The notes under the pieces were generated by a model, which worked only from the letters and a program-made list of their open reading frames with translations, had not been told where the DNA came from and ran no database searches. A stretch of DNA of 64,000 bases from Amphiscolops sp. MND2022 (lineage: Eukaryota), in contig OZ076409.1 in the NCBI GenBank assembly GCA_964187785.1, positions 11,968,001-12,032,000 of the forward strand, read 5' to 3'. Made by a program: the position numbers and the translations under genes. Of the stretch, positions 3 through 55,229 are shown one piece after another. Position 1 is the stretch's first letter. Each line of letters begins with the position of its first letter.

Positions 3-3000
3 ATCTACAACCAACCTCATCTCTATTTCTACAACAATTCCAACCCAAATGATTCAAGCAAAGAACCCGATTCATATAACGATGGTCGAAATCTCAACCT
101 AGCTCTGACCAAGGCTCTGATAGACCCTTGGCAAACTAAAAGGACTACCAAGTTGGCGGTTCAGGAAGACCCCGCGCAAGACTCTTCTCAAGACGGACCT
201 GTGGTCACCCTCACTGCAACCGTCGAAGAACGCTTTGTGAACACGCTCATCTCACGAGACGGTGAACCCGACTATGTTCCGTTGACAACAAACCTCGGAC
301 TAAAATATAAAAGACGCATGCTCTATTTTCCAATGGATTTTGGCGAACTCACATTAGATGGCCTTATAGACACGGGAGCCCTATCTAGCGCGATCCCAGA
401 TGCTGATCTACGGAAAATCCGATTACTTGCCCCTCAATCAATAGTTAAAGAGGGCCCAGCTCCCAATTTCCAAATCATGGTTGCAAATGGACAACTGGAG
501 ACTCCCAAGAGCACTGTCGAACTCAAATTTGAAGTCGGGGACATCGAATTCCACGAGATATTCATAGTCATGGAAAAGCTCACAAGTCCATTAATTGGTC
601 TCTCATTCCTTCAACGGAATAATACCATCCTGGATATGCGACAGGGAGTCCTAAACTTCCCATTCTTTTCCATGCAATTGAAAACAGCGGATCACAAGTA
701 CACCAATGTCATGGAAACCCGTCAGTATACGCGAGGACATAACTATCCCGCCCAATGACAGACACATGGTTTCCATGTACTCCAATATATATGCAGACAC
801 TAATGTCACAGAAATCCTTCAACCGAGCAACGCCCTCACTGAGGACGGAGACATAGCCTTCTGCGCTGCTCTAGTCACACTGACTCAAGGTCAGGTTTCG
901 ATTCATGTGAATAATTTCACTGATCAACCCTATACCCTTAAACGGGGGTTGGACATTGCCAATTTCTCTGTCATGACGCCAGAGCAAATGAAATACGTCA
1001 AACCTATTGACGCTGTGACCACATGGCACCTTTTACAAGATAATCCAGAAAATGCTGCCTATTACGCCAGTAGTTTAATCAAATCTACAAAAACTGAGGA
1101 AGACCAAGGAAACTATTGGTTTCCTACTCCAGAGGAGCCTGGTGATCCCCAGCTCCATACTCCAATTCAGCAAAGAATCTTGAAGGAGTTAAAAAACCTT
1201 CAAGAGCTGGAAAAACTCAACCCTCAGGACGACCCTGAGTCCAGAACACAATTCATTGCTAATTTTGACTGGACAGACTCCACGTTACAACCAGACGAAA
1301 TTGCCCAAATTGAGGAGCTACTTGTCGAATTCCATGACATATTTGCAAGACATCGATTTGATATAGGCATGAACGAGGATTTCAAGGTCAAGCTCACACC
1401 CAAAGATGAATCCCCAGCCTATAGCCAAAGTCTTCCAACACCGATTAATCTCAAAGAAGACATTCTAGTCGAATTGGCACTATTGCATCGATATGGAATC
1501 ATAACAACGCTTCCATTCTCTAAATATGCAAGTCCAATCTTTGCCCAGAAAAAACCAAACGGCAAATTACGACTTTTGGTCGATCTTCGCAAAATTAATA
1601 ACCTCATCTCTGATGATTATATTAACAACAATCATCCTGTGAGTACCTTAACAGACGCCGCACATCATATGGCAGGTAAACGATTGTTCTGCAAATTAGA
1701 CTGTTCACAAGCGTATCACTGCCTACAAATGGCGGACCAGAGGTCCATTGAGATGCTTGCATTCAACTTTGCTAGCAGGACCTTCGCATACCGCCGACTG
1801 GCGCAAGGCCTCAGCAGAGCCCTTTCTGCCTTTTCAAGCTTTATGCGTGAATACTTGGACAAAGTGATCAAAGCTGACCAATGCGCAGAGTACGTCGATG
1901 ATATCGGAATTGCAGCAAACACGACTGAACAACTGATTAGAAACCTCCGAGCGACGTTTCAGTGCATCCGAAATGCAGGGCTCAAACTCACGATGCACAA
2001 ATGCCACTTTGGAGCCAAGGAAATTGACTTTCTAGGACGTACCATCACTCCTGAAGGAGCGCGGCCACAAAGACCTAGAGTCCAAAACTTCCTGGAAAAA
2101 ACCAAATTTCCCAAATCCAAAAAGGCTCTTCAGAGATACTTGGGATTTCTAAACTACTACCGCAATTACATCCCAAGGCTTTCAGAAAAACTCACACCAT
2201 TCTTCAAACTGCTCAAAAACGATGCCAAAATTTTGGTGACACCCAATCTGTTAGAACAATTCACCGAGATCAACAAAGCTCTTGACCGATGTTGTGAACT
2301 TGCACTCAAACAACCTCTGCCTAACAAGCAAATAGCGTTAATGACTGACGCTAGCTTCTCGGCAGCAGGTTACGCAGTTCTCATCGAGGACGATCCAAGT
2401 GAAAAGTATACTTCAACGCGAAAGTCTTTCGCACCTGTAGCCTATGGATCCAAGACCTTTAGTCCCGCCCAACTGAAAATGTCCATATACGCCAAAGAAT
2501 TCTTAGCAATTTTTTTCGCCTTCAAGGAATTTGGACACATCTTTTGGGGGACTCCGAAACCGGTGATAATCTTAACAGATAACAAGTCGGTCACTCGCTT
2601 TTTCCAAACCAAAATTATTCCACCAACACTGTGGAACGCGTGTGACTACGTTATGCAGTTCAATTTCACCATTGCCCATATACCAGGCAAAAACAACATC
2701 GCAGCTGACTATCTGTCTCGACTGGAGATCTGTCCTAAAGAAAAACTTATACTCCGCATACGAGAAGATATATCAATCACGCCCATTGAACTTAACGTCC
2801 AGTCATCCGGCGTTACTGAAGAAGACCAAATTTTTTACACTGATGAGGATGAAGAAACTGAAGAAGGAATCTGGCAACGTAAAAAGGAGGCTAGGTCTCA
2901 TCCGACAAACCAATTACCTGACATTTTCCGAGAGAAACTCACTGCACACAGTGGTGCTTCTTCCCAGATGACAACGCTGCAACTCCTGTCAAATAATACC

Positions 3001-4800
3001 ACCATGGCTATCGAGCAACGAAATGACGTGGTCTTACATCAATTACGGCTCAAACTGCAGAAGGAAGAATATTCTGAAACGATTCTACAACAGGATTCGC
3101 GCTACCGACATTACTGCAGTCAAATTGACCGTCTGTCCGTCCAGGATGACGTTGTCATCAGAGACTATTATGACGAAACGGGAACCGTTCAATACCACCA
3201 GGCGCTTTTACCCAAACACCTTGTGTCAGAACTACTCCACTCACTCCACGGAATGGCAAATAAACATCCAGGAATTTCCAAGATGCTTTATGAAATCCGT
3301 CAAAAATATTACTACCCTGGAATTGCAAAGATTGTCAAAAACTGGGTTCAAGGATGTGAGACCTGCATAAAAGACAAAAGAATCCAAAACCCATCAATAA
3401 CGCCTGAATTACTTAATTTGCCTGAATGGGATCTTGGCCCGGAAGACGCCCTACAAATTGACCTTTTACCTAACCTCCCACCGAGTGGGGGATTTGAAAA
3501 TGTCATTACAGCCCTGGACGTCTTCTCTAGATACCTGTTCGCCTATCCTGTAGTTGACGCTTCGGCCTCCAGTACAGCAAAAGTAATCATTGATATCATG
3601 ACGAGGCATTCATATTTACCAACAACTCTGATTACCGACAAAGGGTCAGCATTCACGTCCCGTCTAGTAAACGAGGTCGCAAAAATTCTAGGTATCCAAA
3701 TCAAATGTGCCACAACGAAGCACCCTCAGACGATAAGCAAATCAGAGAGAACTCATGCCAGTCTTAAGGGCAATCTTAAAATGGCTTCTGGTGAATACCG
3801 CCGCCAATGGCACAAATACCTACCATTGGCTGTTCTCAACTACAACACGACCTATCATTCAAGTCTGGGATGCGAGCCTTCCAGAATTTTCCATGGAAGA
3901 GTACCATATAATATTCTAGACCATCGGTTGGGCTTAAATCCCAACCCAAAGATCCTGCCAACAACCGATTTTGCTGAAGAATTACAAAGGCGCACTCAGA
4001 TTTTGATTGATAAGACCAAGAAAAACATCATGCAGTCGTACTTAAAGTACAAGGAATATTATGATCGTGAAGCAAAAGCAGCCCCACTACAGCAGGGAGA
4101 TTATTGTTTTTTACTTCAACCGCTAGCGGACAACCAGGGATCCAAACTTCCGTTTCGCGAATTCCGGTGGATTGGACCGTAAGTCATTGAAAAATATTTA
4201 CCGAACGAAAACTACATTGTCCGTAAACTTAGTTCCAATAAAACGCAAATTTTACACAGGATACGTCTACGAAAATACACTCCGAATAAAGAGTTACGTG
4301 ACGTCCGACCGGAAGGAAATTTGCAAGCCGATGATGAAATCGTCATGCCACAAGATGATCATTACATTATTTCTTGGGAAACAGAATTTGACGACTTTCC
4401 CCCAGCTCCGAACGTGAACAACCCTCCTGATGATTCTACGCCTAATTCAGATCGACCGGACGCTATAATCACAGATTTGGACCTTCGGTCCACGCGGTGG
4501 CAAGCAGATACTGACGCCGCCAATACTGAACCGCTAAGACGCGACGTGAATGACGCGGACCTTAAGTCCACTCGACGGCAGCAAAAAACTGATTCAGAAA
4601 TGGACGAAACTACTTCTAAAAGTCCCTCAGAAGCAAGAAATTTTGATTTTTTGAATTCTAGAGGGGAAGATACAATCGTGCCCGATTTTCTAGACTCTGA
4701 AAACGATGAAATGGTTGTAGGAAATGAAAGTCCCAGGGGAGGAAAATATAATCTGCGCCCCAACCCAACTCCAAACTTCACTGATGAATACAGATACTAG
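3..4800 (+). pseudogene. pol: Gypsy pol polyprotein (aspartic protease, dUTPase-like segment, RT, RNase H, integrase) with one frameshift (~718) and one premature stop (4180-4182)
   Basis: LIDTGA protease; LLVDLRKIN, LDCSQAYH, YVDD in RT; TDAS and TDNKS in RNase H; H-H-C-C zinc finger; QIDL/TDKG/ERTH integrase triad; GP(Y>stop) motif, after which the same frame continues to TAG at 4800. Confidence 0.95.
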
Positions 4801-5004: not shown

Positions 5005-8000
5005 TCAATCCTTAGCAAAATGACGAATGCTTGAACTGGAGGGCAACTCGCTGTCTGATTGACGCCTCACAGGCGATCCTTTGGCACTGGCTGGCGGAAG
5101 ACTCTTGGAACTGCTGTTGCTTTTCAGATCTTTAAACCTCAACTTTCGACTTTCAGTCTTCCTCTTCATTGAGCCCGGACGTAAAGCAGCAAGAATTTCA
5201 GAGCGATCGAAGCGATTGAGGCTGTCCCAGGGGCTATACATGTCAGAGAAGGCAGTATTCCCGAACGTAGGTTCGAAGGAAAGGAACTTAGCTATTGAAG
5301 AAGCTGAAGTGAAGGCATCTATGCTCCGCCCCACATTAATAAAGAAGGATTGAACGGGCAGAATGGTGTCAATAAGTTTACTTTTGGGGTCATCTGTCCG
5401 CACTGGACCAAACTTCACGGTAGGCATACTAACATAACTCTCATCCAAACATAAACAGCTCAGCTTAAAGATCCGAGCAAGATGGGGTCTTGACTCTAAG
5501 GCAACATGATTGGAAATGTGAGTCACTGCATCCTGGATTATGACCCTTGGTTGGCCCAGATCAGGCATCTCTTTGCGGATCTCGTCAAGGAATGATAAAT
5601 ATTCCTCTGTATAGATGGACTCCGCGTCGGCTTGAAAGTAACCGCGAAGATGAAAGCTGCGGAAAAGATGCTTGAAACAATTCAGCGCCTGGCTAAGGGG
5701 GGAACGATACATAATGTCCAGATCAAAGGAGCCCAATCCTTTCACAATGGTGGAGGTCAGTTGTAAGTTGTTTTGGGCAGCATGGAAAAGGTAGGCAACG
5801 TAGCTCCTCCCAAGTCGCCCAAACTCTTCTTTGTTCTCTTTCACGAGTTTCGGAAGATTAGCCCGATTGCCCTTCTTGTCGCTTAATTCCTTTTCTGCCT
5901 TGACTTTGCAAGCCACTTTCAGTCGTTGGTCGAGCTTCGATCGGGCGATGAAATCGGGAATGGCTAAGGCTTTGGCATCCGACATAGCAATACCCAAAAT
6001 CCCTGACAGATCTGTTTCCTGTGGCAGACTTTTCGGCTTGATACAGCGCCTTCCTAGCTTGAAGAGGTACTGGCATAACTGCCTGTAGATATGGAATCCA
6101 TGATCCCGTCGTTCAGTCAGATGTGGCACAAAGCTCGTGGTATCTAAACATTTGCGTTCACTATGATTATCGAAAGCTCAAGAAATGATACGTACTACGG
6201 GTGGACTATACTTACAATCCCTGACCAAGCGATAGAAGAGTTCAAGCCGGCACAGAAACAACTCATCATGGATCATGGCTCGCTCTAGGTTCTGAGGCTA
6301 GAACAACAAAAGGAAAATTGAAACAACCGAAATTAGACTGAAGGTCAACGGGACGGCAGCGACTTACTTGTTTTCTCACTCCCATCATTTCATGCGGAGG
6401 TGCATGTTCATTCAGGAATTTGGTCACATCTGTCCAGTTAGCAAGCAGCTCCTGACACAGTGTTGGGAGAGTGGCGAGTTCAATTTGGCAAGTACGAACA
6501 GCCTGAACACAACAAGTTTATTAGTACCTTTGAAAGAGCCGTGGACTACAAGCCTAAAATGAGAGAGTCTAACCTTTGCCAACACTGGCGTCATCAAGGT
6601 CCAATCACAGTCGAGACTTCCCCCCAAGAAGATGATTAGATACTTGAGAACGGAGTGGAAGTCGATGCGTCCAAAGACGCTATAGCTTTCTTTATGCATT
6701 AGCCGCGCGATTGAAAAGTCCTCAAATCTGAGAGGGTGTTGGAGTCCATGCTTACTGTAAGGAGAACTATCTACCTTCTGGATCGTTTCCAGGCTGCAAC
6801 CGGAGCAACTGACAATGTTGGTGCCGCGTGAGAAAACTGCCAAAACGTCACTTATGAGGCTTAATTCGGCTGCCGACTGTCCCAGGACCCGGCCGGTTCG
6901 CTTCAGGAAAACTCGGCAGAGCTCGTCCTTTCTCCAGAAACGGATGAACACTAACAGGAAGACTCCTTGCTTGATAAATTCCAGCGAATACTCGCCCGCT
7001 GCAACTACATGGTCTCCAATGTCATGTATAGTTTGTAGGAACAGGTGGTGGAAGAGAGCCTAGAATGAAAACATCATATTTAATGCAGGTCAAAAGTAAC
7101 GATTACTGGGCTGGGGAAGACCTTAAGTCGATTTAACGGCAGGAAAATACTTACTGATAGCCGTTCTTTACTCCAGTCAAAGTCAGTGAAGAGCGACTGA
7201 TGGTTTACAACGACCCCAACATCCCGCCAGAGGTTCCTCAGGGTGCTGATATCGCCGTAGCTTCGCAAGTAGTTACCCAGAACTGACATCTGGACTCGAA
7301 CACGGTTGTCGGATGAAGAAGCCATGTAGTCAACTCCTTGAGCGTATTCGTCGTAGAACGGAAGCTTCTCTCCGATGTCCACGAGTTCTACCCCAATGAA
7401 CTTGGGTAATTCTAATTGAAGCTCGTAGGGGGTGAGAAGTCGTCCGTCCTTCCCCCTGACATGGTGTTTTATCCTTCCACTCACGGGGTCTTCTATGGCA
7501 AGATGCTCGTATCGCCACCTCTGATCTTTACGAAGATGACGTTCGGTGGAGTGGTGACGAAGGATCTCTCGAGCGCCGCGTCCATAAATTGATATATTGC
7601 CTTTACAGATTTGGCAATAAAATTTATACGGATTCCAGCGAGGATCAACTGGTCCGCTCACAAACGTCTTCGTCCACTCCATTCCTTTAAAGTATGCCTC
7701 TTTCATGATTTTACAGGCACGAGGCACCCGATGTCTGCTCTCTCCTTTGGGGCGAGTAGGCTTCTTGCTTTGTCTTCGGCGTGTTCCAGACTTAGTCATT
7801 TCCGATACTGCCTCCGCTTTGAGCGCGGACAAGGTTTGTCCTCCGGGGCTATCAGTCTGGGTTGAAGCTCCAGGTGACACAAGGTCAATTTGACGGCTTC
7901 CAGTCGGACCGGTTGGGGGAGGAGTAAAATGTTGACTCTCCAGGTCGGAATGTTCGTAAACATATCCAATACTGGCGAAATCATCGTCACTTCTGATTCC

Positions 8001-9265
8001 CCCACTGGTATCGCTTGTATGACCTGATGACAAACCAGATTGTGACCCGGCATAACTGGTATGAGAAATTGCTTTCTTCGACCTCGGAATGACGGCCGTC
8101 GGTGACCGCTGGGCTCCAAGGCTCAATCTGCTTGCTTGTTGTACCAAGCTTTCCATAGCTTTCAGCGACGATTTAACTGCTTCATCTGCTACAACTTTTA
8201 ACAAGTTACTCACTTGGCCCTCATTCAATGCAAGGGTAGGAAGCCCAGGAGACAATCTGATGGGGGTGGCCTCGTCAAAATACTCCTTTATCAAAGCGCG
8301 ACTACTAGCTGACAGTTGAGGGACTCGATGTGCTGATTCAGGGAAATCTACTGAGGTGTTGCTGGCTACATCACTCACTCTAAATACGTTAGCTTGGGCA
8401 GGTGCAAACAGGACATCAGCCACTGTGGACCCGACTAATCCTTCAGACTCTAACCCGGCGTCACTGGTTACCTTATCGGATTCTCTGTTCGCTGTTGGAT
8501 CTGTAAATCTGGGGGCTTCAAATTCCCCAGCGAACTCAGATCCAGCTTCAGAACTTGAGAGACCTTCCGTCCCGGCGGCGGCATCAGACAAATCAGTCCT
8601 TGGAGCACTCAACTTCACGCTCAGTCTTTGAACTTTTGCTTCGGAAGGCCCATATCGGGACTTGAGACTGCTTTTCAATAGTACTTTGGGAGAGTCCAGG
8701 AATGCAACCTCTGGCGCTTCGTCCAACTCCAATTCATCTTGGGTAGGGGAATACTGACCGGGCATCAGCTCCATCATGCTACTCTCGCTAAACTTCTTGT
8801 CGCTCCAGTCGTTCTGACTCGATGTACCAGTTTCTTGCGAACAGCCCAATTGTTCCCACTTTCGAGCGATGTAAGCCCCACAACTCTCATCAGTGCTACT
8901 ACTCTCAACGTTCCAGTTGCTGTAATAGCAGGAGGAGTGGCTTCTGTGTTGGAAATAGCCATGGGGGGATCTTGAGGCGTCACAGTGATGTTCCCCAAAC
9001 TTGTAGTTGCTCCCTCACTCACCAGACTGGGATCGTCTTCCACTACTCTCTCAGGATCATCTGACTTGTCGTCATAATCATTCTGGCCGTGAGTCATGGA
9101 CTTTACGGTGGGGAAATTATTGACAGTGGAAGAGGCAGTTACAAAGGAATCAGTCGTATCCATTTTTTCTTCTTCAGCGACCAATTGGAGAGGTTGGCCA
9201 TTAGATTCATCACCTAAACGGAATGAGATGAATAAACGCGGTTCACTTCCTGAATATGAATCCAT
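5005..9265 (-). CDS. Antisense 5-exon gene (~1317 aa), BED-like zinc finger, hAT-transposase-derived; exons 9265-7155 (one frameshift ~8900-9000), 7059-6574, 6502-6368, 6297-6216, 6143-5005
   Basis: Four GT-AG introns (7154-7060, 6573-6503, 6367-6298, 6215-6144; 70-95 nt; three GTAAGT donors; CTAAT branch-like sites in introns 2 and 3) join the minus-strand ORFs exactly in frame (phases 0,0,0,1). Contains FYCQICKGNISI...ILRHHSTERH zinc finger. Confidence 0.85.
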
Positions 9266-11314
9266 CTAGCCGCATTTAAACAAAATCTCCCGGAAGTTCA
9301 ATTGACACAATGTTCACGCTGATAGCAAACATTTCACGATGGAGGAAGTAACTTAGTTGGGATTATGAGCTCTGATCACGCCAAATTCTAACACTTTAAA
9401 AGAACCAACCTGATGCTGTATCCATAGTCGTTCAGCAAAATTGATGTGATCCAATTGTAGTTCGTGCAAGGAGAGTAGATTCAGTCGATACAACGACTAG
9501 TTTTCAAATTGCCTCGGATTGTTGAGGAACCAAAATTGTAGTGGTCTTTTCAGTGGACGCTGAGGAAGGGGATGTAAACTGGAGCTTCTGCTTCTCGAAG
9601 AGATTGTTAAACGGGCAATTTAGAATGAAATAGTATGGAGAAGTTTTGTTTTGTGATTAAATGTGACAGGAAGTTAACCAACTGTACATGGAAATGATGG
9701 TGAACTAAATGCCACCCCGAGTCAAAGAACTGCACTGGTTACATAGTGGACAATTTAGCCCGAAGGAACAGCATTTGAAAAGCAGATAATCAATGCGAAT
9801 GAGATTAAACTCTGTGGAAAATACCAATGGACCTAACGTCAAACGGACGGCAGTGCTATAATAGTCTCAGGATTTGGGGACAACCCAGCAAACAGAGCTC
9901 AAAATGTGGATTAGTGTTCAGAAGGAGCGTATTGAAAGAATAGATTGAATCTATACAATTAGAAAAGTACCAAATAAAGAACTCAAATATACTCAGCAAC
10001 TTCTAAAAGAAGCATATTACAAATGATGAATGCAGCTGATATCAAAAGGCAAGTTAAATTAGTGTTCAAATGAAGTAATAGCCGTTACTAGCTGCCAATC
10101 ATAACTATTATTTACTCAAGCTGACTGTACATCCATTTGACGGCAACTTATCACTTACTTATTAACTATTGCGTAATAAGACAATAAGTCCGCTCCACTA
10201 CAAAGGTATACATGTACTCATTTACCTGTCAAATTAGACCGGAATTACAGCCATCAACATTTACACTTATTGTGACGTCACACGCGTTGAATGACCACCA
10301 GTCAGCCGGACGGCATTCAATTACTTACATGTACGCGACTACTTTGAGGAAGTTAGAGCACACCTATTTCGTGACGTCACACGCGCTGTATGACCACCGG
10401 TCAATTGGACGGCATTAATTTAACTATTTGTACTCACCCCTTTTGACTGAGACTTCACGTCCCGCGGACTGCATCAAAGGATGAACCTGAAATTCCCTCA
10501 TTTATTGAACGTTCAGTCCAGTTGACAGCACGGATTCCTTGACTCACACACTGAAATACTATGAAGATTTAAACCAAATTACTGGTTTTGTCGCATAAAA
10601 TTCACTTTATACGTGAAATTTCATGTCCGTAAAGAAGTCGTGGCTACATACAAAATGATTAAGGCCCTAATCCTACCAATTTGTTGGAAAATGAGCCTTT
10701 TGGTGTTTTCTTGATCAATTGAGCCTGCCAGTGAGATTTCCAAGGAACATCATTTTATTTCCACTTAGTTGGATCATTAGTCCAGCTTCACTCTTGCTCA
10801 TTATGTTTCTTTTTCCTTCAATTATTATCAGTTACCATTTTAATAGATTGATTCTTTTCTATTTACCTGATTTCATTCTTTCATTTTCGTTCATTCATCA
10901 ACACCTTTGATTGGTTGACACGTCGACTGCCGTCAAGCGGACCGACGGTCTTTGAACAAGTAGTGTTGACAAATAATATTAACGGTAAACCCTTCACTGA
11001 CTTGTTAATACTGCTTAGCATGCCTTTGAAGAGAAAAGCAAGCTACCCTCAAGTGGTACTTGACGAGTGGTATTCTCAACTCATTCATAGATTGTTGATT
11101 ACCAACTTATTTTACTCGACCCTGAAAAGGAAAAATAAGGGAAAGTTTTTGGGGGGTTTCCCTCCACCAGTTCCCGCGAAAATTAGGATTTGACCAAAGG
11201 TCAGTCAGACGGCACAATTTCATTCATCCAACTATTTCCTTGAGGATCAGTTCCAACGTTTCAAACTCAGCCAAGATTGCAAAGAAAATATTACTCTCCC
11301 GGTTCAGTAACGCG

Positions 11315-12138
11315 ATGTCATTGCAATTCTCCTTAGACGAAGTGGCTAGACCTTTAGTGAGCCTTTCGTATCAATCCTCTGACGAGGATATGGGGATTGA
11401 TTCTGTGTCAGTACCAGACCATCTTGAAAGTCAGGATTCCGATGACGACATTCAAGTCCTGGCTTGCTACCACGAGAATGCTCCCTTCCCTCCCCAGTTA
11501 GCAGCAGGGAGAGCAATGACCACCGAATTGACCAATTCTCTGAACGATCTCAATCTACCAAAAGAGGACTTCACAGACACAATTAGCACGTTCACCGAAC
11601 CTTCGCAGGAGTTGCTTGACTGGTGTGTTGGTGCCCCCCCAACGACTTATGTAACCGTTATGGCCGAGATCACCCAATCACTCAATGCAGTCAGCTCAAC
11701 CCAATTCGCGATTCGCCTTGGTCACAACCACTGGAAGATCAGAGACCCATCAATGATTACAGCAGCCAACTGCCACAAACCTACGAATCGGACTCATGGT
11801 ATAGGAGTGCACACATCACTGGATTGGGCATCAGTATTAGTGGCTCCTGTGGGCAGCCCAACGAGATATTCCACAGTGGGTGCGTGGTCTGCGGGAAATC
11901 ATTCGAGGACATTCGGACAGAAATCACTCTTGGATATCTGGAGCAGACACATGTGCCCGGTGAGACCTACGAACAAAGGACTGCACGTAGTAATGCTTTC
12001 CAAGCTGGTATGAACGCTGGGTCGTTCATACTAGTCCCCCGGGGAGTGTCGCAGGCTGCCGCCTGTGACGGCGTGGCTTACCAAATAACCCCGGAAAATG
12101 ATCTCAACAACCCAGGACCAGGTGTCCTGCCAATATAA
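11315..12138 (+). CDS. Accessory ORF inside the LTR (~274 aa if one C is restored in the C7 run at 11634-11640); unknown function
   Basis: Two overlapping ORFs (11240-12013, 11623-12138) joinable at a homopolymer; acidic N-half; C-half with HSGCVVCGKS; GC-richer than flanks. Confidence 0.55.
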
Positions 12139-12917
12139 AATAAACACTTAGAACTCATGTGATATACTACTATATATTGTTGCATTACTCAATACACAAT
12201 AATCATAATCATTGGGTGCTTAAATTACATGTGATTCACAATTATTTCAATATGTTGACCTAAGGTCAGTTTGACGGCAATCACTCACTTTAGTATACTA
12301 AAGTGTCAAAACGTTAGCGAAACACCCTACTCATTTGCAAATTATTGTATCAGTGCTAATACAAAACCTGTTGCAGTTAAAATACCAATGTGAAGTTGAC
12401 GTAGTTAATATCAACTAGTAAAGAGTAAAGACAATGCATTCACCTGCCACTATGTTGCTGCCGGGTCGACGCGCAGTACGCTGTACCCTTGTCCAAATAA
12501 ATATAGCAAAATGTATGTTTTTGCCGCCACGTGGACGCAAGGTCCACTCAGCCGATAAAAGTTAGATGTTGTTCCCCAGTGCATGAAATGTTGCTTACTA
12601 GTATTAGCATACTTTAACATAACTGCCGCTTCTATTTATAGAATTTTGGATTAGTGACGTAATATCTCTAGTGACGCCATGTTCTATTTATAATATCTGT
12701 GATGTCATAGTTAGATTGATCGCTATTTTTATAATGATGTCATTCCTATTTTTACTTAATGACACTCAGAATATTGAGTGTCACGGATGTAAAATTATAA
12801 ATAGGAGGATATTGTTACTAGAAATTCATTCAATACCTGCTTTGTGATACAATTGACACTGTTGATACAATTCTGATCATTCGAAATTTACTGTTGAAAC
12901 GTTATTTTCTTATTGAC

Positions 12918-13560
12918 ATGCCTTCTACCAGGAAGCAGAAAGCTAAAGAAAAGCGACCAAGACAATCTGACGTAATGTCAGACGTAGAAAACCTTGATAT
13001 AATGCTTGGAAGTTATTCCAGAGATGCACAAGTAGAGCAAGGTAACATTAGTGACGTTGAAGGGGACTTTGAGTCTGATAGACGCCAACAGAGCACCGAC
13101 TTAGTCGAAGGAAACTTCAGGTCACTCTTGAATACCAATGTAAGTGAAAATAGTGAAATTACGGCTGAAACTATGAGAGCAATTAACTCAGAAATTTCAT
13201 CGCAAATGTCCAGAAAATTAGATGAAATGAAATCAGATTTGAATTTGCAAATAATGGATGCTATAAACTCAGCAATTCAGGAAAAGGTACTTCCCTCCTG
13301 TGAAAATACGTTAAATTCGGTTAAAACCACTCAAAACACAAAATGGGACCTTCGGTCAGATGGACGGCATTCCGGTTTAGTAGGACAGTCTGCCTCCAAT
13401 AGTGACCCTCGGTCAAGTGGACGGCACCAAAGCGCACAAGCACCGTTAGACTTGAAATCAAGTGGAAATCGGCCAAAATCTAACCTTAAAGAGAGTAACC
13501 TTTACAATCGCTCCAGAGATAGTTCCGTAGATTCTATTGAGAGCGATGTCGGTTACGACA
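12918..13560 (+). CDS. Gag-like N-terminal ORF starting inside the LTR, cut at the LTR end
   Basis: MPSTRKQKAKEKR basic start, coiled-coil-like ISSQMSRKLDEMKSDL, open up to the terminal CA; TATA about 120 bp upstream. Confidence 0.6.
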
Positions 13561-13915
13561 CTAATCTTTTCATATCGTCGATGTCCTTCTTCATTTCTAG
13601 ATTGTTAGACACACACTTGAGACGATCATCAACATTTTCCAGACACCAACCACAGAACCACTTGCAGGCATCGATTGCTCCGATGACATTTAATTGCTTC
13701 TTGGACAAACCCGAACACTCTTCATGAAACCATATAGAGCACATGTCACACATTATTGCTAATTGACCATTTAGCACCTCCACATCACACTTCTTGCTAA
13801 TGCTTTGCGATGCCTCGTCATTTGTTGTACAATCTGCATTGTGATCCCCCCGATCTTCGGCCGATCTTTGAAATCCACTAGGGCTGCTTCTTATCGGCAC
13901 ACCACCATATCTCAT
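13561..13915 (-). pseudogene. PHD-finger ORF fragment (LINE ORF1-like or host), truncated by the LTR element
   Basis: C...IMCDMCSIWFHEECSGL...WFCGWC followed by a coiled-coil-like segment; cut at 13560. Confidence 0.7.
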
Positions 13916-33789: not shown

Positions 33790-35750
33790 CTGGTGACAGT
33801 GATTCGACACAATCTGCGGACGCTGTTTTGGGTGTTTCGAACCTATCCTTTATGAACACTAACTCAAAAAGAAACTGTAACTGGTTATCAATTTGTTGAA
33901 ACGCTGGCCGCTGGGTCTTCAGGAGAGTGGTGACAAAGTTATAACATGTAGCTTAGACATGTTGTTTACAGTTTTCCGGTCAGTTATTGAAGAATGTCTG
34001 CCCCGGTTTTTCAATGCATTACGAAGCTCTGATGGTTCCATGGATGGTTTTCCACCTGGGACACTTCTTCAAATAAGGAGGACAATCGTTTGAAAACATT
34101 AACACCGAATGGATATCAACCAGTTAAGGAACGGGCCGCAATAATTACCGATGAAGTGGAGCAACAACTGTGGAACAGATGCATTTTAGGCTCAAATAAT
34201 CCCAAACAGTTGTTGTGGACAGTTTAATACATTGTTGGAAAGCATTTCGTCCTACGTTCGAGACAAGAACACAGAAACCTTCGGTTTGGTTCCGAATCAC
34301 AATTAGAAGTATTTAGTATACCCCGCTTGAAAAGGTGGTATACAATGAAACAGTGTCGAAGAGAAACCCAGGTGGTATGCGGAACATCAAACAAGAACCA
34401 AAAAGTATGGAAATAATGGCCACCAATACCACTCAACTTTGTCCAGTTGAGATCATCAAGTTTTACAAAAGTAAAATTCCAGCCTGGCCCAAAGACTTCT
34501 ACTTTGTACCCAATCCAAATTTCGAACCAGGTTGTTCTATTTGGTTTTGAGATCAACCAGTTGGAGAAAAACAAGCCGGGACCGGCCCAAGTCGGCGCCA
34601 TATCCAAGGCTCAAAAATAGCAAAAAGACTTCCAAGTGTCAAGTATTCGTTTACAGTAGTCGAAAATCAAAAATTTTTCGATTTTTTTTTTGAAAAAATT
34701 ACTAAAAAAATGGACCGAGTGGCGCGCCGGGGCTGGCGCGCTAACGTCTCACAATGCCGAAAAACTGAAAGGGGGGACCCTTTGAGGTTTTTCAACATTC
34801 ATTCTGTCGCAAAACATGAAAAAACTGAAGAAAACAAAAAAAAATTATTTTCGGAAAAAAATCTCACAATGCCGAAAAAACTGGAAGGGGGGACCCTTTG
34901 GGATTTTTCAACATCCATTCTGTCGCAAAACATGAAAAAATTGAAGAAAAAAATTTTTTTTCATTTTCGGGAGAAAATCTCACAATGCCGAAAAAGACTG
35001 AAAGGAGGAACCCTTTGGGATTTTCCAACATCCATTCTGTCGCAAAACATCAAAAAAATGCAGGGGGGACCCTTTGAGGAAAAAAAATTTCGAAAAAAAA
35101 TCCGAAAAAAAATGTCTCGCAGTGCCGAAAAAAAATTGAAAGGGGGGACTCTTTGGTCTCGCCCGGTATGATATGTTACGCGGAAAAACAGGTAAAACCA
35201 TTTTGGTCCAGTTCGCTAGGTCAAATGGTGCTATTTGACACCATAATATTTTGTAGAACTTTTAAGAACTATTTTGGTCAGTTCGTGTGGATAGAAAAAA
35301 AAAGAGTCACTATAAAAGTCGCGTTTCACTTCATGAAGCGCCGACTAAAAATTTTGTGAAATCGTAGGAGATATATCAATCATTGCTGGTTGGGATCATA
35401 ACCTATTGTGGTCTGGCCATTCGCTGCGAGCGTCAGCAATTACATCGCTGTCAGAAAACAATTTCCCAGATTCCAGGTTTCAAAAACTTAGTGGTCGCCG
35501 AAGTGTTCGAGCATTGAGCATATACAAGCGGTCAAAAGATCTTAATGCGTCAATTTGTAATGCATTGGCGAACCCAGTTGTGACCTTGCTGCATGCATCT
35601 ACTGAAGTAGCAGCATCCATTGATCGAATTGAAGGAACGTCGAAAAGCCGACGAGGAATAAAAAAAACGAAAACAAAAAGATTATTATGATGACTTGAGT
35701 GACGATGATTTCGACCACGAACTAGTAAATGCAGCTGAAAAAGTGGAATA
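33790..35750 (+). pseudogene. Crypton-like (DUF3504-type) tyrosine recombinase remnant split by a Helentron-like insertion
   Basis: EQQLW..LGSNNPKQLLWTV, LRSRQEHRNL, YNETVSK.NPGG, CPVEIIKFYKSK, QPVG, GHSLRAS, SG(R)RS..LSIYKR. Confidence 0.8.
34571..35347 (-). mobile_element. Helentron/HINE-like element, copy 2, with ~115-bp internal tandem repeats
   Basis: Same termini as copy 1, reversed; internal unit TCTCACAATGCCGAAAAA...GGGGGACCCTTTG; inserted in an A-run. Confidence 0.75.
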
Positions 35751-41017: not shown

Positions 41018-43270
<2,253 letters not shown>

Positions 43271-44437: not shown

Positions 44438-44928
44438 GCAAACCGGGACCGCCCAAGTTGGCGCCATATCTAAGGCTCAAAAATAGCAAAAGGACTTCAA
44501 AATGTCAAAGTATTGGTGAATTGGGGACCCTTTTATGAGAAAGAAAATTTGAAAAAAAGTCTCACAATGCCAAAAAAAGCTGAAAGGGGGACCTTTTGGG
44601 ATTTTTCAACATACATTATGTCCCAAAACTCCGAAAAAATTGAAGGGGGCCCTCTGGGGAAAAGAATTCCCGAAAAAAGTCTCGCAATCCCGAAAAAAAC
44701 TGAAAGGGGGACCCTTTGGTCTCGTCCGGTATTGTATGTTACGCGGGAAACCTTTTTGGTTCAGTTCCTTGAGCCAACGGGTACAATTTGGTGTCTTCTT
44801 GAAATTTTGTAGAACTTTTGGGGTAGAACCATTTTGGTCACTTCAGGTGTATCGAAAAAACTTTTTAAAAAACACTTACGAAAAGCCATGACTTTAGTCG
44901 ACTCTTTTCTCTAGAAAAGCGCCGACTA
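44438..44928 (-). mobile_element. Helentron/HINE-like element, copy 3
   Basis: Shares both termini and the internal repeat with 34571-35347. Confidence 0.7.
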
Positions 44929-48232: not shown

Positions 48233-51200
48233 TGTGGTAGCGATCATAAAAGAGCAACCATTGTGTTGACAAAATACCTGCTCCGTTGAACAATTTGTTC
48301 AACCAAAAGATTCAACACCACCAAATGGTCTGAAACAATACACAAGAAAGTTACCACCGAATACTCTTTTTAAACAAGCTTAGACCACGCGATCACATGG
48401 CGCTGTGAGCTGAAAATCAGCCCGTTGCGGGCATTCCCGTATTTTGGCAAGATGCATCAGCAGAGAGAGTTTATGAGTGGAGCCGGTGGATCGAGCTTTT
48501 CGAGGCCACATTAATGGCAAAATCTTCAATCTCCCTAGACGAATTAACCAGAGAAGCTTCAACAAATGCCAGAAGAAAAGAGCTGATGGGCGGGTCAGAA
48601 GAACAGATAGCCCAGAAAAAGGCAGTTAGTTTCCTTTACAATGCGCTCGGAGAGGCGGCAAGGAAAACGCTTTTGGACAGAAAGCCCAACTTGGACATAA
48701 AAACCATGAACTTAGACGAACTGCTAAAAGAATGCCAAGATGCTTTCCACAAGAAGTGAAACAGACTCATGGACAGACACAAATTCTTCAACCGCAAACA
48801 ATTAGAAGGAGAGACCCTAGAGCAATTTCGGCATGCACTAAACGGGCTGGCATCAAATTGTGATTTTGGAACCCAGCAAACCAGCCTAGTTTACGACATT
48901 TTTTCTCCAACATGAAGAATGTGGTGGTCCAAGAGAGGCTATTTACTGAGCCTACGGATAACCCCGAGGAGGCATTAAATTTTGCCTTTGCTTTCGAACA
49001 GGGCGCGCAGCAGAAAAAAACAATTTGTGTGAAAGCTGCAAATATCAAAGAAGTTATTTGTTCGTGTTCGCAGTGGAGAAGTACAATGAATGTTATAAAT
49101 GCGGTGAAAAACCCTTTTTAATGGGACATCAAAAAGTTTGCAAAGCAAAAGGCGTAGAATGCAGAAATTGCGGAAAAACCGGCCACTACGCCAGAATGTG
49201 TAGACTAAAGATCTCAGAGACAAAGAAGAATAACTCTGCGAACCGGAAGGTAAATGCGATTCGCACAGAAAGCCCGTGGAGCAGTTCAGAAGAAGAATCT
49301 GCCGAGGAAGTAGAAAATCTACACATAGATGGAAAGACGCCAAAGAACAAGCCGTTCGTGTTGAAAGGCAAATTCAACAGAAAACCGTTCCACGCGCTTA
49401 TTGACACCGGGTCGCCAATCACGATCTTCACCAAGGCCCATGCAGAAAAGATATTCGGAAAGCACTTTAAGATGAAACCGCTCGACAAGGAAGAGAAGCA
49501 TGTCGACTATAGCAGCAACAAGATTGAATTCTTGGGTGCAATTATCGGCCAAGTCGAATCCGGGGCGAAGAAAATGGATAAAGTGCGCGGATTAGTTGCG
49601 GAGAATGGGACGAGGACGGAGATAGGGAGAGATTGGCTGAGAGGCCTCGGAATCAAATTAAAGACGGAAGGTGGTAAGTGTCACAGTCCGCTCCCGGACT
49701 GGAATGCGGTTGTAGACGAGTCGGCTACGGAAGAGGCCATGGTTGTACCGCAAAACTCACAAAAGGTATTTTGGATTGTAAATTCTCGTAAGATTGAAAA
49801 AACTTTGACTGGAAGTACAAAATATTCGTCTGCCTTGCGCAAATCCTGAATAAGAAATGAAAATAAGAAATAAAATGATCTAAAATATTTTCACTCATTT
49901 CCGGCAAGACGTCTTTGCCACGTCAAAATAGTAACATTCGCCACCTGAAAACTAAATTAAGACACGTTTCAAAACAATGAGAGCATAAGCCAATCTAAAT
50001 GAAAACATATCCAAAATCATCTCCAAGAGGGACATCAATCAGATCCAAAAAAGAAAATACACTGAGATGGCACGCCGGAGAAACTAAGCCTTTTCTAAGA
50101 AAGGCAGCTTAATTACTCTTTGAACAGCAATTAGTATGGTTTAGGACGTCAATATTAGGACGAGCAAACGAAGCGGCGGAAGAAATAAGTATACATGTAT
50201 CTTTGTCGACGCAGACAAGTTTGAAGGTATACCAATTGACGTCACTGCCTCGCCTCGCCTATACGTACCAAAAACTCATTCCAATTATCCGCCTATACTA
50301 ATTGAATTACTAGAAATCATTTCAATTTACCGCCATTGTGACGTCACTACGCCGGCAGCTAGTTAGAAAATCGTTCCTAAAATACTTGTCAGCATTACGT
50401 CACACTAGTCAAAATCTCATTTCGGCCAAGAAAACTCGTCAACATGACGTTGACAAGTTTTTGAAATTAGACGAATTAAGTTTTTTCACCAAATTGATTG
50501 AGGAATTCACCGTTTTAGGCCGTACTTTCAGAGGAAATAACATTTACGATTCAGCCTAGGATATAAAATAAATATTCCACTAACGTTCCTAGCTAAAGAA
50601 ATAAAATGTAGGCTTTGCGATAGTTCCTCATAAATTAAATTTTCGTTATTCTAAACGCGTTAAATGGTCTAAAAACAATGAGTTTCTTTTCTGATCCTAG
50701 TAGGTAGAGTCACAGTTTATGTTTTTCTTTAATGGATAAATAACCATATTTTCGTGACAAAAAGGTATTTTCTTTACCCCCAACAATGATGTAAACTGTA
50801 AACCTAATATTTGCAAACATTTGTTCCAGTCTATTTTATATGACGTTTGCTAACATGTTGGTTTTGTATTCAATGTACTCTTTAAACCACCTAGATTTGT
50901 AAAACCCTATTTTTACTGAGTCCTGTGAATTGTGTGCTATCTCATAAGTGAGTCTGCGGATAGAAGGCGCTCTCATTTCTTTTACTACTGTTCAAGTTTG
51001 AAGTTTTCATGTTTCGTTGAATTTAATACAGTAACTTGTCGCATTTGTCGCGTCAGGACCAAATTGTTGATGATGAATGTATTTAATAGTACAATTCTAA
51101 TATTATTTCCAACGTAAAAGAGTGAGTCCAAATCCATAAAAAAATTGTCCTAGCATCGCTTAAGCAATCACAGTTTGGAAATTAGTCATATTTTTCCTCA

Positions 51201-54200
51201 AGTTGAAATTCAAAATCAGGTATTAGTTGTTCACGTCGGCGTCATCTCAGCGTCAATTTCCCGCGAACCAAACAGTAAAACAGGGAATCATTTCCGGTTT
51301 GATAGACTGAAGTAATATCTACCTCCTGTTTGAGAGGAGGCAAAAGGACGCCGGGATGAAATGATATGTTCGTGATAAGTGACTACTATCGAAAAATTGT
51401 AGTCGTGTCTTAAAAGTTGACGAAATGTCGATGCAATTTTGGGATCTTCATGATTTTTTCATCGACAAAACAGGAAATGACTAATTGTTCGAGGAAATTA
51501 GGGATTATGGTCGTGATCAAATGTTGCTGGGAGGGTATAAATACGGTAGAATTTAATGATTAAGGGACTCAGTCTTTTTCAATTGTGAAAATCAGTTATC
51601 TCATAACTTGCTCAATTTTCCAATTCTCAATCTAAAACTTTGTTGAAAACACTTTGAAAGTAAATTGAATTCTTCAAGATCAATTTCTCTCTACTTCGAA
51701 GTGTCTACCACTAGAAGCCAGAAAAGAAGAAACAATCAACAAGAAGTTGTTGAAAACGTAAGGGAAGGTTTTGTTTCGCCAGTTATAGCGGAAAACTTTT
51801 GTCCCTTGGACCAAGAAGTAGACGTTGTAGGCCCGTCAAAACCAAAATCTCCAAGAGTAGAAGGTAGCTTCTTAGAAAACTCAAGAGCCTCTCTAAAAGA
51901 AGAGATCACGTCTCAGATCAAGAATCTCCTTGTAGAGTCCCAGAAGGAAACGTTAAGACTTCTCAAGACGGAAACAAGGGAAAACATTTAAAAAAACGTT
52001 GAAGAAGAGACAGAGAACGAAACTAGGAGTTTCTACAACCATACAAAATCAGTTAGAATTAACTCTACCCAAAACAACGACCAGTGTAATAGTCGTAACA
52101 GTAAATGTGAAATTAATTGCATAAGCGAACCGACGAACTTGTTTAAAGAATTTGAAGAACTATTTCCAGGAAAAGGACGATTAGAAGGTCACGAAATAAA
52201 CGCGCAATTTAAAGAGAACTGCGTACCGAAACAACAAAAGGGACGAAGGATACCGCTCCAACTACAAAATTCGGTTGAAAATGAAATCAAAAAATTGATC
52301 AAAAAGGGACATATTGAGAAAGTCAACGAGATAAAAGATGACGTTTTCATACAACCTACAGTTATTACAGTCAAAAAAGACAAAAGCATAAAGATCGCAT
52401 TGGACGTAAGAATTATTAATGAAATCATAAAGAGGGACAAATATCAAATGCCAAACTTAGACGATTTAATGTGTTCATTAGCTGAAGCGATCACAGGTGA
52501 CGGATCTGGAGAAGTATGGTTCCCATCAGTAGATTTGAAATACGCGTTTGGACAAGTTCTTTTAAACCCTAGTTTAGCAAAACATTGTAATTTCGCAATT
52601 GTAGGCGGTAAGGCCAGCGGTATTTACCGATTTTTAACAGAATTTTACGGGCTAACAGTAATGCCCACCGAATTTCAAAAAATAATGGAAGAAATTTTAT
52701 TTAATATTGCAAATGTTTACGTTTTTATAGATGACATTTTAATAGTAACAAAGGGAACAAAAGAAGAACATGAAGAAAAAGTTAGAGAAGTTTTTTAAAA
52801 AATAGATAGTAGAAAATTGCAACTAAAGGAAGATAAATGCAAAATTGCAAAGAACGAGATCGAATGGCTCGGATTTGACATATCAGAAAAAGGGGTGAAG
52901 ACACACAATGAGAAAATACAGGGTATATACGGAAAAATGAAACCGAAAAACTTGACAGATCTCAGATCGTACCTCGGGGCAGTGAATCAGTTGATAAAAT
53001 TTATACCCGGACTAGCCCAGCTAACCGTTTAGAGATTTGTTAAAAACGGACGGAAATTGGGAGTGGAAAGAGAAACATGATATCGTTTATGATCAAGTAC
53101 AAAAAAGCCTCCAAAACATAGAAAAACTGTCACATTTTAACAGAGAAAGCAAATTGCGAATAATTTGCGACGCCAGCCACCAGGGATTGGGCGCACTACT
53201 GCTACAGGAAAAGGGCGAAATGGAGTGGGAACTCATATCTTGCGCTTCAAGATATTTGAGTAACTACGAAATGAAATCTTCTACGAATGAATTAGAACTT
53301 CTCGTCTTTGTCTGGGCAGTAGAACATTTCCGTAACTACATATACGGTGCAAAATTTGAAGTGCGAAAAGAACGCTGTACGCAATTTAATTAAAACTTCA
53401 AAGAACGTTCCGGATAAACAAATTGTTCAGTCGCAAAATTTGAAAACTTCACCCATTCAATCGATAATATCATCAATTGAGGAAAACATCTCTTCTACAT
53501 CTACTGAGCATTTACCCGAAGTTAAATTTCTAAAAGTAAAGTCATTTAAGGAAATAAACGACATTATGTTAATGGCAAATTACCAATCTGATTCTGGATT
53601 ACAAAATGTCAGAGAGGCAGTATTACGCCGAGATGTAAATTTCCTCAGAAAGAAGAACAAATTGTTCAAGCCAGTATTCAAAGATCTAAGAGTGGATCGA
53701 GAACTAGTATTCTTTGAGAACAGGCTAGTTATTCCCCGTGACATGAGGCAGGCAGTTCTAAATAGTATCCACAGTGGACACCCGGGACGTGATGCTGTGT
53801 TAGGATCCGTAGATGAAATTTGGTGGCCTCAAATCCACAGACAAATTGTGGCGATTGCAAAAGCCTGCAAAACTTGCCAAAATGCAGGTAAGAACATTAA
53901 AGTTATTGAAAGACAAAGTAAATTTGGAACTATTCAATTGAAAACAAAACAAGTAAACGAAGAAGTAGCACTCGATTTTATGGGACCATTCGCTGGCGCA
54001 CCCGAATATAAAAAATATTTACTTGTAGCCATAGATCAATTTTCCGCATATCCGACCTTAAAACTTGTCAAAAACATCGCAATGAAAGAAGTAGCAGATT
54101 TCCTACGGAAATATATTAGTGACAATGGAACTCCGCAAAAATTAAGAACGGATCAGTCTACGGTATTCATGGGAAATGAGTTTAGACAGTTCCGAAAAGA

Positions 54201-55229
54201 ACTAGGAATGCGGCACGTAGTCTGCCCCATATATGATCACCGGGGAAACGGAAAAGTTGAAAGATTGGTGAGGACAATAAATGAGAGGCTAAGAGCGAAT
54301 TCCGAAGTACTAACCGAGAAACAAAACAAATTGTTTTACGAACTAATAAGTGCGCTAAAAACTAATAAGGGAAAAGAAGGAAAATCTTCCTTTGAGCGAC
54401 ATACAGATAGAAAACCAAACACTGTAACATCGATAATTAAAAAACTGTACAAAGAATTAATTGATTTAGAATTCGACAGAACTGTGGATCTGGAAAAACT
54501 GGAGGAATTTCCCGGAGATGATGACAGCACCACATTTGTACGAAACCGCCAAAGAAAGGGAAAACTGGCAGGACTATTCAGGAAGCGAAAGGGGGAAAAT
54601 CACTGGCGAAGCCAGCCACACCATCAAATTTGTGCCAGCCGAAAGGACCAATGAGATTGTCCTATCCAAAAGAGAAGTGGCCACAGGCGAATAGAAGGCG
54701 AGAAAACAACAGAAGCCCAAGAAAGCCAAAAACTACGTGATGGAAGAGATCGATAAGGAGAAGAAACAGCAAACAGCCCAGGTCTTCGCAGACCTAGAAG
54801 AAGACGAAAGAAACCGCAACCAAGACACTGCCAACGATACTTCAACTGTAGAGGAACGGGCCAGAAGGGCCAGGAAGGCACCAGATCGATACGGTCTTCC
54901 TGTGTACATATGCGGAGTGTCAAAACCAAAATAAACTCTCTCTAGTTGAAACTCTTTAGTAGTGACATTTTATTAACTTGCTTACTTCATTAACCTTGTA
55001 CATTATGTTCTTGTTACTTGTAGTGTAAACGAAAATTCCCAACCGTCAATTGGCGGCGGGGGAATGTGGTAGCGATCATAAAAGAGCAACCATTGTGTTG
55101 ACAAAATACCTGCTCCGTTGAACAATTTGTTCAACCAAAAGATTCAACATCACCATATGGTCTGAAACAATACACAAGATAGTTACCACCGAATATTCTT
55201 TTTAAACAAGCTTAGACCACGCGATCACA
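48233..55229 (+). mobile_element. Full-length but disrupted Gypsy LTR retrotransposon; 165-bp LTRs at 48233-48397 and 55065-55229
   Basis: TG...CA LTRs differing at 4 of 165 positions; TSD CTCTG; PBS TGGCGCTGTGAGC (tRNA-Ser-like); PPT GGCGGCGGGGGAA; gag CRNCGKTGHYARMC, LIDTGS, FIDD, CDASH, integrase HSGHPG...CKTC, DFMGP, TDQ, VERL. Confidence 0.97.
49679..52100 (+). mobile_element. 2422-bp solo LTR nested in pol between protease and RT; carries gag-like ORF start (~51701-52100)
   Basis: TGTCAC...GTAACA ends; TSD GTAAG/GTAAA; removal restores the host frame EGGK-CEINCISEPTNLFKEF; TGACGTCA sites and TATAAATA near 51536. Confidence 0.9.

Follow-up and report, generated by a model that had tools for sequence, protein, structure and literature searches.

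DNA transposons of the hAT (hobo/Ac/Tam3) superfamily generate 8-bp target duplications, and their transposases have been domesticated as host genes, with the ZBED proteins, DAYSLEEPER and GON-14/LIN-15B as examples. Retroelements can carry genes on the minus strand: HBZ, a small bZIP regulator, is encoded on the minus strand of an exogenous retrovirus and has its own promoter near the 3′ end, and brtn, reportedly described by Zhao et al. in 2011, is said to be an antisense gene of Boty-like gypsy elements in Botrytis and Sclerotinia. A gene with introns can ride in a retroelement only when it is antisense to the genomic RNA. Here, we analyse a 64,000-nucleotide stretch of the genome of Amphiscolops sp. 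MND2022 (GCA_964187785.1, contig OZ076409.1, positions 11,968,001 to 12,032,000; hereafter the window), in which a Ty3/gypsy-type long terminal repeat (LTR) retrotransposon carries a five-exon antisense gene whose product probably descends from a hAT transposase. Antisense accessory genes and domesticated transposases are both known; the unusual feature here is a domesticator that is a mobile element in its own right.

Among plant Ty3/gypsy elements, Grande (gene23), RIRE2, Retand (TRP28) and PvRetro13 have antisense open reading frames (ORFs) between pol and the 3′ LTR; according to the available text of PMC7264820 and PMC11963269, these ORFs are conserved, occur in most copies and are suspected of a nuclear or DNA-binding regulatory role. 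Antisense extra genes are known from plant and fungal LTR elements. The available text of PMC7264820 also mentions the antisense extra ORF of fungal Boty and antisense genes of retroviruses such as HTLV HBZ, and that of PMC6431247, which reviews giant animal gypsy elements with extra domains, does not mention an antisense gene. The Amphiscolops gene shares the place and orientation of the plant ORFs and, like an aORF-3R in the sense in which the available text of PMC7264820 uses the term, lies antisense between pol and the 3′ LTR and is conserved in most copies. The TRP28/PF04195 and Smc-like domains given for the plant proteins in these texts have no match in the present protein; moreover, the plant ORFs are described there without introns or a transposase fold, whereas the present gene is from an animal and far larger. 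With brtn, it shares the status of an antisense extra gene in a Ty3/gypsy element outside plants, although brtn comes from fungi and its product is of another protein family. With HBZ, it shares the minus strand of a retroelement and, in the proposal given below, a regulatory role and a promoter of its own near the 3′ end, the two proteins being unrelated in fold and sequence. A literature search, which did not extend to subscription journals or Repbase reports, listed no publication in which an LTR retrotransposon contains a hAT-like gene.

The element, a Ty3/gypsy-type LTR retrotransposon of 16.5 kb in an animal genome, is young and complete, and most of it falls within the window. A stop-to-stop scan with the standard code yields four minus-strand ORF pieces downstream of pol (9265-8774, 9014-7080, 7059-6424 and 6177-5005), and consensus splice donors and acceptors are visible on the same strand. 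The resulting gene runs from an ATG at 9265-9263 to a stop at 5007-5005, with a product of about 1,317 aa in copies free of a frameshift; its predicted start, MDSYSGS, agrees with the starts of the relatives P0030 and P0051. For comparison of exons and introns, the window copy was aligned with 16 diverged copies from the same genome (17 in total). The gene is organized as follows:

5005 to 9265, minus strand: antisense accessory gene with five exons and four GT-AG introns, from the ORF pieces and a splice model
7155 to 9265, minus strand: exon 1, encoding the Ser/acidic N-terminus, a basic patch, a CCHH finger and a helical linker
7060 to 7154, minus strand: intron 1, 95 nt (GT..AG in 17/17 copies, lengths 87-97 nt)
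6574 to 7059, minus strand: exon 2, 162 aa, RNase H-like core (AlphaFold2 model of the relative P0142)
6503 to 6573, minus strand: intron 2, 71 nt (GT..AG in 17/17 copies, lengths 66-76 nt, 46.5% identity)
6368 to 6502, minus strand: exon 3, 45 aa, with the motif LPxLCxELxxxW
6298 to 6367, minus strand: intron 3, 70 nt (GT..AG in 17/17 copies, lengths 68-72 nt)
6216 to 6297, minus strand: exon 4, 27 codons plus 1 nt
6144 to 6215, minus strand: intron 4, 72 nt (GT..AG in 17/17 copies, lengths 63-76 nt, 43.5% identity)
5005 to 6143, minus strand: exon 5, 378 aa and the stop, an all-helical domain with a low-confidence tail

Across the 17 copies, the introns are 43.5-61.4% identical to those of the window copy versus 68.6-76.1% for the exons; for intron 1, nucleotide identity is 51.6% versus 72% in the flanking exons. 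Exons 1-4 are almost free of insertions and deletions, and intron lengths differ by non-multiples of three. Several relatives lack individual introns. In P0011 and P0142, exon 1 continues into exon 2 with an equal residue count; P0190 and P0195 translate across intron 2 in frame; and in P0240, P0244, P0320 and others, exons 4 and 5 are joined by exactly one residue, fitting the split codon. The tryptophan of the exon 3 motif is conserved in all 17 copies and in five loci of a distant lineage. Taken together, these comparisons indicate that the antisense gene is real and spliced. Because the introns are antisense in the genomic RNA, splicing never removes them from the template, and they outlast each copying cycle, as established knowledge of retrotransposition would have it. 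The four retained introns furnish a natural marker that separates the antisense mRNA from genomic RNA.

In order, the predicted protein comprises roughly 490 Ser/acidic low-complexity residues, a basic patch, a CCHH finger, a helical linker, the RNase H-like core and some 450 helical residues. The first-pass annotation of this DNA had read the protein as a captured, catalytically dead hAT transposase on the strength of short motifs, all of which we located on the minus strand where it had placed them. They are distributed over exons 1, 2 and 5 of the five-exon gene, whose conservation in thousands of candidate copies makes them more than chance reading-frame text; they are listed here together with the basic patch:

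7743 to 7781, minus strand: basic patch RRRQSKKPTRPKG, exon 1
7536 to 7622, minus strand: zinc finger C-x2-C-x16-H-x5-H, with a conserved W..F pair upstream
7605 to 7622, minus strand: finger string FYCQIC, exon 1
7536 to 7565, minus strand: finger string ILRHHSTERH, exon 1
6976 to 6990, minus strand: core string YSLEF, exon 2
6934 to 6957, minus strand: core string LLVFIRFW, exon 2
6904 to 6918, minus strand: core string CRVFL, exon 2
6841 to 6876, minus strand: core string SAAELSLISDVL, exon 2
6799 to 6819, minus strand: core string NIVSCSG, exon 2
5446 to 5490, minus strand: helix string RPHLARIFKLSCLCL, exon 5

The low-complexity N-terminus, estimated earlier at about 500 residues, proved close to that length: 494 aa precede the finger (Ser 15.6%, Ser+Thr 23.3%, Asp+Glu 14.8%, Lys+Arg 7.7%).

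To obtain a structural model, we ran AlphaFold2 on P0142, a public relative of 353 aa in which finger, linker and exon 2 are uninterrupted by introns; the window exon-1 and exon-2 translations were among the alignment rows. P0142 is 31% identical to the window exon-1 piece (E 7e-27) and 29% identical to the exon-2 piece (E 1.5e-14), its residues 184-342 aligning with exon-2 residues 2-160. The model has a mean predicted local distance difference test (pLDDT) score of 74.4, with values of 82-97 in the finger region and 76-91 in the core. The core is composed of strands E205-213, E216-225 and E228-238, helix H244-257, strand E263-268 and helix H272-281, the β-β-β-α-β-α succession expected of an RNase H-like core in the hAT superfamily, and corresponds, from β1 to α2, to approximately 6993-6763 of the window. 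YSLEF, LLVFIRFW, CRVFL, SAAELSLISDVL and NIVSCSG fall on β1, β2, β3, α1 and β4, respectively.

When the P0142 model was queried against the Protein Data Bank (PDB) with Foldseek, ranks 1-12 were all chains of the hAT transposase Hermes (8edg, 4d1q, 8sjd, 2bw3, 6dwz, 6dww; E 2.4e-4 to 6.9e-3, probability 0.85-0.99, 182-317 columns). All five PDB matches at E<=1e-3 were Hermes, and HIV-1 integrase cores appeared from rank 13. In the viral library BFVD, rank 1 was a Pandoravirus protein annotated as ‘HAT family C-terminal dimerization region’ (E 7.3e-3, 360 columns), with the highest TMq, the TM-score of the query, at 0.27. The longest alignments are those with Hermes (134 and 160 residues). They are also co-linear: the N-terminal model covers chain residues 143-569, and the C-terminal model covers 367-604. 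The latter model, of the exon-5 ORF (m6b72b0583923), is all-helical, with 16 helices in total (H26-332) and a pLDDT of about 90 for residues 25-245; its helix H231-242 covers RPHLARIFKLSCLCL, which had been likened to the hAT dimerization domain. In a language-model atlas, the clusters nearest to P0142 are those of DUF659, a hAT domain, with a score of 0.76. The general plan is also that of Hermes and other hAT transposases: an N-terminal Cys/His finger, helices, the β-β-β-α-β-α core and a long helical region, in the same order. Given that hAT proteins head the structural matches in two libraries and that the domains follow the hAT order, the architecture probably descends from a hAT (Ac/Hermes-type) DNA transposase.

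A number of observations weigh against this ancestry. The model was built on a relative that shares just 29-31% identity with the window protein, and the structural similarity is of moderate strength (TMq 0.18-0.27, root mean square deviation 11-22 Å). Foldseek with the exon-5 model left the C-terminal half unrecognized. The atlas score falls under the 0.9 line and is a lead only. At the sequence level, the minus-strand pieces gave no Pfam match above threshold, and neither they nor three relatives matched a hAT family at E<=1; DUF659, DUF4371, DUF4413 and Dimer_Tnp_hAT were absent from the 150 and 71 members of the two family alignments at E<=10; and the profiles of both alignments returned no Hermes or ZBED chain from the PDB sequences at E<=10. 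We also compared the family with 24 canonical hAT transposase ORFs collected from the same genome via Pfam DUF659, in which D171, D234, C258, H261 and W321 are invariant and E531 is near-invariant. With hhalign, the antisense family matched the profile of these 24 ORFs at a probability of 0.1-0.8% in all settings, a value left unchanged by more diverse rows, while the halves of the hAT set matched each other at 100% as a positive control. The trimmed exon-2 core scored 10.5 against the trimmed hAT core, and 40 column shuffles gave 11.1 ± 2.3; the proposed parallel to the hAT RNase H core thus holds in that the strings sit on modelled core elements, and at the sequence level is no better than chance. 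A Pfam DUF4371 search of the genome itself returned no matches and was uninformative, the controls being likewise silent; a crude alignment-averaged Chou-Fasman profile gave excessive noise for the hAT control too and was not used as evidence. The window copy is, in addition, frameshifted in the antisense gene and has a stop in pol. In this genome, we also noted at least 150 DUF659-type hAT transposase matches, many of them seemingly intact; their frames reach 621 aa and contain the complete D, D, CxxH, W, E signature.

The identity of the finger is a further point on the same side. In the P0142 model, the finger region forms two strands and a helix (β-β-α, pLDDT about 90); the ligand pattern C,C,H,.,H is present in at least 48 of 79 covering rows, and the upstream W..F pair in 58 rows. 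Pfam matches among the 150 members are all weak (zf-C2H2_ZN292 in 33, KIN17 in 22 and zf-BED in only 3, best E 0.0099), and a phmmer search of the finger against the PDB found no BED zinc-finger chain, with six weak unrelated matches at E 0.26-0.44. The finger, previously called BED-like, is a CCHH β-β-α finger whose BED identity is uncertain.

These results bear on the strongest competing explanation, that the middle domain has a common RNase H-like fold and does not descend from hAT, having come from another transposase or integrase or being too old to place. Were this so, the Hermes ranking would reflect merely a similar run of helices around a common core, the source being, for example, a diverged retroelement integrase. 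Such an origin accords with the uniformly negative profile tests against hAT and with the hAT signatures CxxH and ERxFS not being present as such. It fits poorly with several other findings: i) Foldseek places hAT first in two separate libraries, before integrases; ii) the Hermes alignments are the longest as well as co-linear; iii) the C..C pair of the finger precedes H..H, unlike in the HHCC domain of integrases; iv) Pfam rve matches none of the 150 members at E<=10; and v) the language-model atlas likewise indicates a hAT domain. We regard a non-hAT origin as unlikely, though deserving to be taken seriously. The first-pass reading of a dead hAT transposase is supported in part: the fold, the ranks of the Hermes and Pandoravirus proteins, the atlas neighbours and the missing second Asp speak in favour, and the sequence and profile methods, the low TM-scores, the uncertain identity of the finger and the unrecognized C-terminal half against; of the similarity to hAT proteins that the first-pass annotation anticipated, we find the structural kind and not the profile kind.

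We also aligned the catalytic positions across copies of the antisense family. The β1 position is Glu in 43 of 51 family rows. At the end of β4, columns S84, C85, S86 and G87 are acidic in 2/61, 0/62, 0/62 and 0/61 rows, respectively, and the family does not carry the DDE triad. Beyond the exon-5 helix, a conserved L-D-E-P-R-x-S-F-P stretch carries Asp in 63 of 69 rows and an acidic residue at its Glu position in 60 of 68; the corresponding sequence of the window copy is DESYVSMP. Judged from these alignments, D-E-P-R-x-S-F may be a remnant of the hAT ERxFS signature. The earlier statement that both catalytic Asp residues are lacking is true and can be refined: β1 is mostly Glu, and only the β4 end is practically never acidic, so that the second catalytic Asp is missing family-wide. 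The statement that ERxFS is lacking holds for the window copy and is less apt for the family consensus. Since the family as a whole lacks the middle, β4-end carboxylate, DDE catalysis would not be expected, and the core presumably cannot perform it. Rather than intact DDE residues flanked by terminal inverted repeats, other copies lack the β4 carboxylate, and at least 40 of them adjoin an integrase.

A protein that is still an enzyme would have to combine the β1 Glu, the Asp-Glu after the exon-5 helix and a substitute residue, and would cut or join nucleic acid for the element. Conserved acidic residues do occupy two of the three expected places, and the whole core is under strong purifying selection. 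Yet the β4 end is Ser, Cys, Thr or Gly across the family where a carboxylate (D234) stands in 24 of 24 hAT controls, and exon 2 contains no other invariant acidic residue; retained catalysis is accordingly very improbable.

Relative to hAT transposases, therefore, the antisense protein is similar in domain order and differs in sharing no sequence or profile similarity, in lacking the second catalytic Asp and CxxH, in having ERxFS only as D-E-P-R-x-S-F, and in being about twice as long, with an acidic/Ser-rich head of 490 aa. Its genetic setting differs as well from that of a hAT transposon: four introns interrupt the gene, which is contained in an LTR element bounded by 1,514-bp direct LTRs and the 5-bp duplication CTAAT, with neither terminal inverted repeats around the gene nor an 8-bp target duplication. 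It resembles hAT-derived host genes in being hAT-shaped, in having lost catalysis and in being kept by selection, presumably for DNA binding. Unlike these, it is kept by a mobile element, whose candidate copies run to thousands, rather than as one copy in the host; for the ZBED families, no sequence relation was found, zf-BED being weak in 3/150 members.

Constraint on the antisense gene was queried by codon analysis of the 136 pairs among the 17 copies. Median nonsynonymous divergence (pN) was 0.143 versus 0.861 at synonymous sites (pS); synonymous sites were saturated in 122 pairs, and the other 14 gave a median dN/dS of 0.062 and a maximum of 0.263. Twelve of the 17 copies have no in-frame stop. 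These values indicate strong purifying selection on the gene. The window copy carries a one-base gap near 8915 compared with three close copies that have an unbroken 728-aa first frame, which explains its two overlapping N-terminal frames.

Searches with the individual exons in the 1.07-Gb genome gave 106-150 scored matches among 6,418-8,161 first-look candidates; for exon 1, the best 150 of 8,161 candidates were scored, and for exon 5, the best 106 of 7,777. A distant lineage keeps all five exons, with identities of 46-49% in the finger part, about 40% in exon 2 and about 30% in exon 5. In public collections, 444 representative relatives, all unnamed, were found at E<=1e-3, and a homologue search with exon 5 among longer proteins returned no full-length annotated protein. 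By-eye comparison of the exon-5 and integrase lists, each of which contains only the best of thousands of places, placed an integrase 0.8-2.7 kb past the 3′ end and on the opposite strand for at least 40 of the 106 listed exon-5 places. This pairing, together with the conservation, marks the antisense gene as a fixed component of the element family, and the earlier proposal of capture by a class I element is well supported in this respect. We also considered the minus-strand ORFs as chance frames opposite pol and rejected this, as they are located downstream of pol and are under codon-level selection.

In another reading, the gene is a useless passenger: a DNA transposon or host gene inserted into an ancestral element, and its decaying remnant has been replicated with the element ever since. 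This reading draws on the general frequency of nested insertions in LTR elements and on the frameshift of the window copy, and is close to refuted by a pN of 0.14 despite saturated synonymous sites, splice sites kept in 17/17 copies, near absence of indels in exons 1-4, open exons in 12/17 copies and persistence of the antisense gene in lineages merely 30-49% identical.

Taken together, we favour, as the somewhat likelier account of the locus, an antisense gene of the element's own that encodes a DNA-binding regulator built on a hAT-derived, catalytically dead scaffold. A mechanism can be outlined tentatively, its steps being proposed jointly and as a whole falling short of probable. Transcription of the mRNA would begin at an internal promoter within the 9266-11125 spacer. 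The predicted protein would enter the nucleus and bind DNA through its finger and dead transposase scaffold, a prediction that rests on the basic patch, the finger and the scaffold. The long acidic, Ser-rich head would serve as the effector or activation region, making the protein an element-encoded regulator, most likely a transactivator of element transcription; integration tethering and protection from silencing would be the next most likely roles.

The more specific proposition, that a class II transposase was taken over by a class I LTR element, lost its chemistry and is now an indispensable intron-bearing trans-acting factor of a hugely successful family of animal elements, is plausible and only a little short of even. 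If true, one selfish element would have been domesticated by another and not by the host, and the LTR element would have gained a private activator or integration guide that binds specific DNA sequences. If descent from hAT is correct, domestication of transposases would not be limited to host genomes, and mobile elements would recruit each other's proteins. The animal family is a large and well-conserved case of an antisense gene with a readable fold, which suggests DNA-binding functions that can be tested.

The remainder of the element corresponds to a Ty3/gypsy retrotransposon, with LTRs, gag bearing CCHC knuckles and the pol order protease, reverse transcriptase (RT), RNase H and integrase. 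Its other features are:

682 to 4182, plus strand: pol ORF with RT, RNase H and integrase (Pfam and ORF table)
11126 to 12013, plus strand: sense accessory ORF, 295 aa, between the 5′ end of the antisense gene and the 3′ LTR
12047 to 13560, plus strand: 3′ LTR, 1,514 bp, TG..CA, from direct-repeat comparison
L013:7065-8578, within 10 kb fetched upstream of the window: 5′ LTR, 98.9% identical to the 3′ LTR over 1,514 bp

Both LTRs are bounded by TG and CA, with the CTAAT target duplication outside; a TGG-starting primer-binding-like site follows the 5′ LTR, and a purine run lies ahead of the 3′ LTR. Upstream of pol are gag with two CCHC knuckles and the protease. The pol ORF matches RVT_1 (E 1.9e-23), RT_RNaseH (5.5e-16), Integrase_H2C2 (2.5e-14) and rve (2.3e-12) in Pfam. 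An in-frame stop at 4180-4182 falls within the WIGP-x module of the integrase tail, beyond which the pol frame is open for 205 more codons, to 4800.

The sense accessory ORF at 11126-12013 has 133 genome matches, 50-70% identical over the first 175 aa and in frames of 300-357 aa. As these matches adjoin copies of the antisense gene, it represents a further conserved accessory ORF of the element; it matched no Pfam family. It and the antisense gene are divergent around the 1.9-kb spacer 9266-11125.

Each LTR also contains a long sense ORF of 269-301 aa that starts with MPSTRKQKAKEK and reaches or passes the LTR end (12822-13727 and L013:7840-8649); the gag frame may start inside the LTR. The window integrase (3130-4179) shares 98% identity with one copy and 93% with a group of others. 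Copies with an antisense exon 5 (5005-6177) 98-99% identical to that of the window have an integrase that agrees at only 87-88%. Because the identities of integrase and exon 5 disagree, the element appears to be a mosaic, suggesting recombination between element lineages.

Elsewhere in the window, a second LTR retroelement spans 48233-55229, delimited by 165-nt direct repeats (48233-48397 and 55065-55229, 98% identical); its ORFs encode a zinc knuckle and protease (48962-49849), an RT (51992-52798) and an integrase (53323-54654). An actin gene exon lies at 42659-43270 on the plus strand (Pfam Actin, 2.2e-68), with animal actins as the best match, which places the host among the animals. A 91-nt repeat is present in five copies, 60-100% identical, in two short tandem groups (34734-35057 and 44548-44758) approximately 9.6 kb apart.

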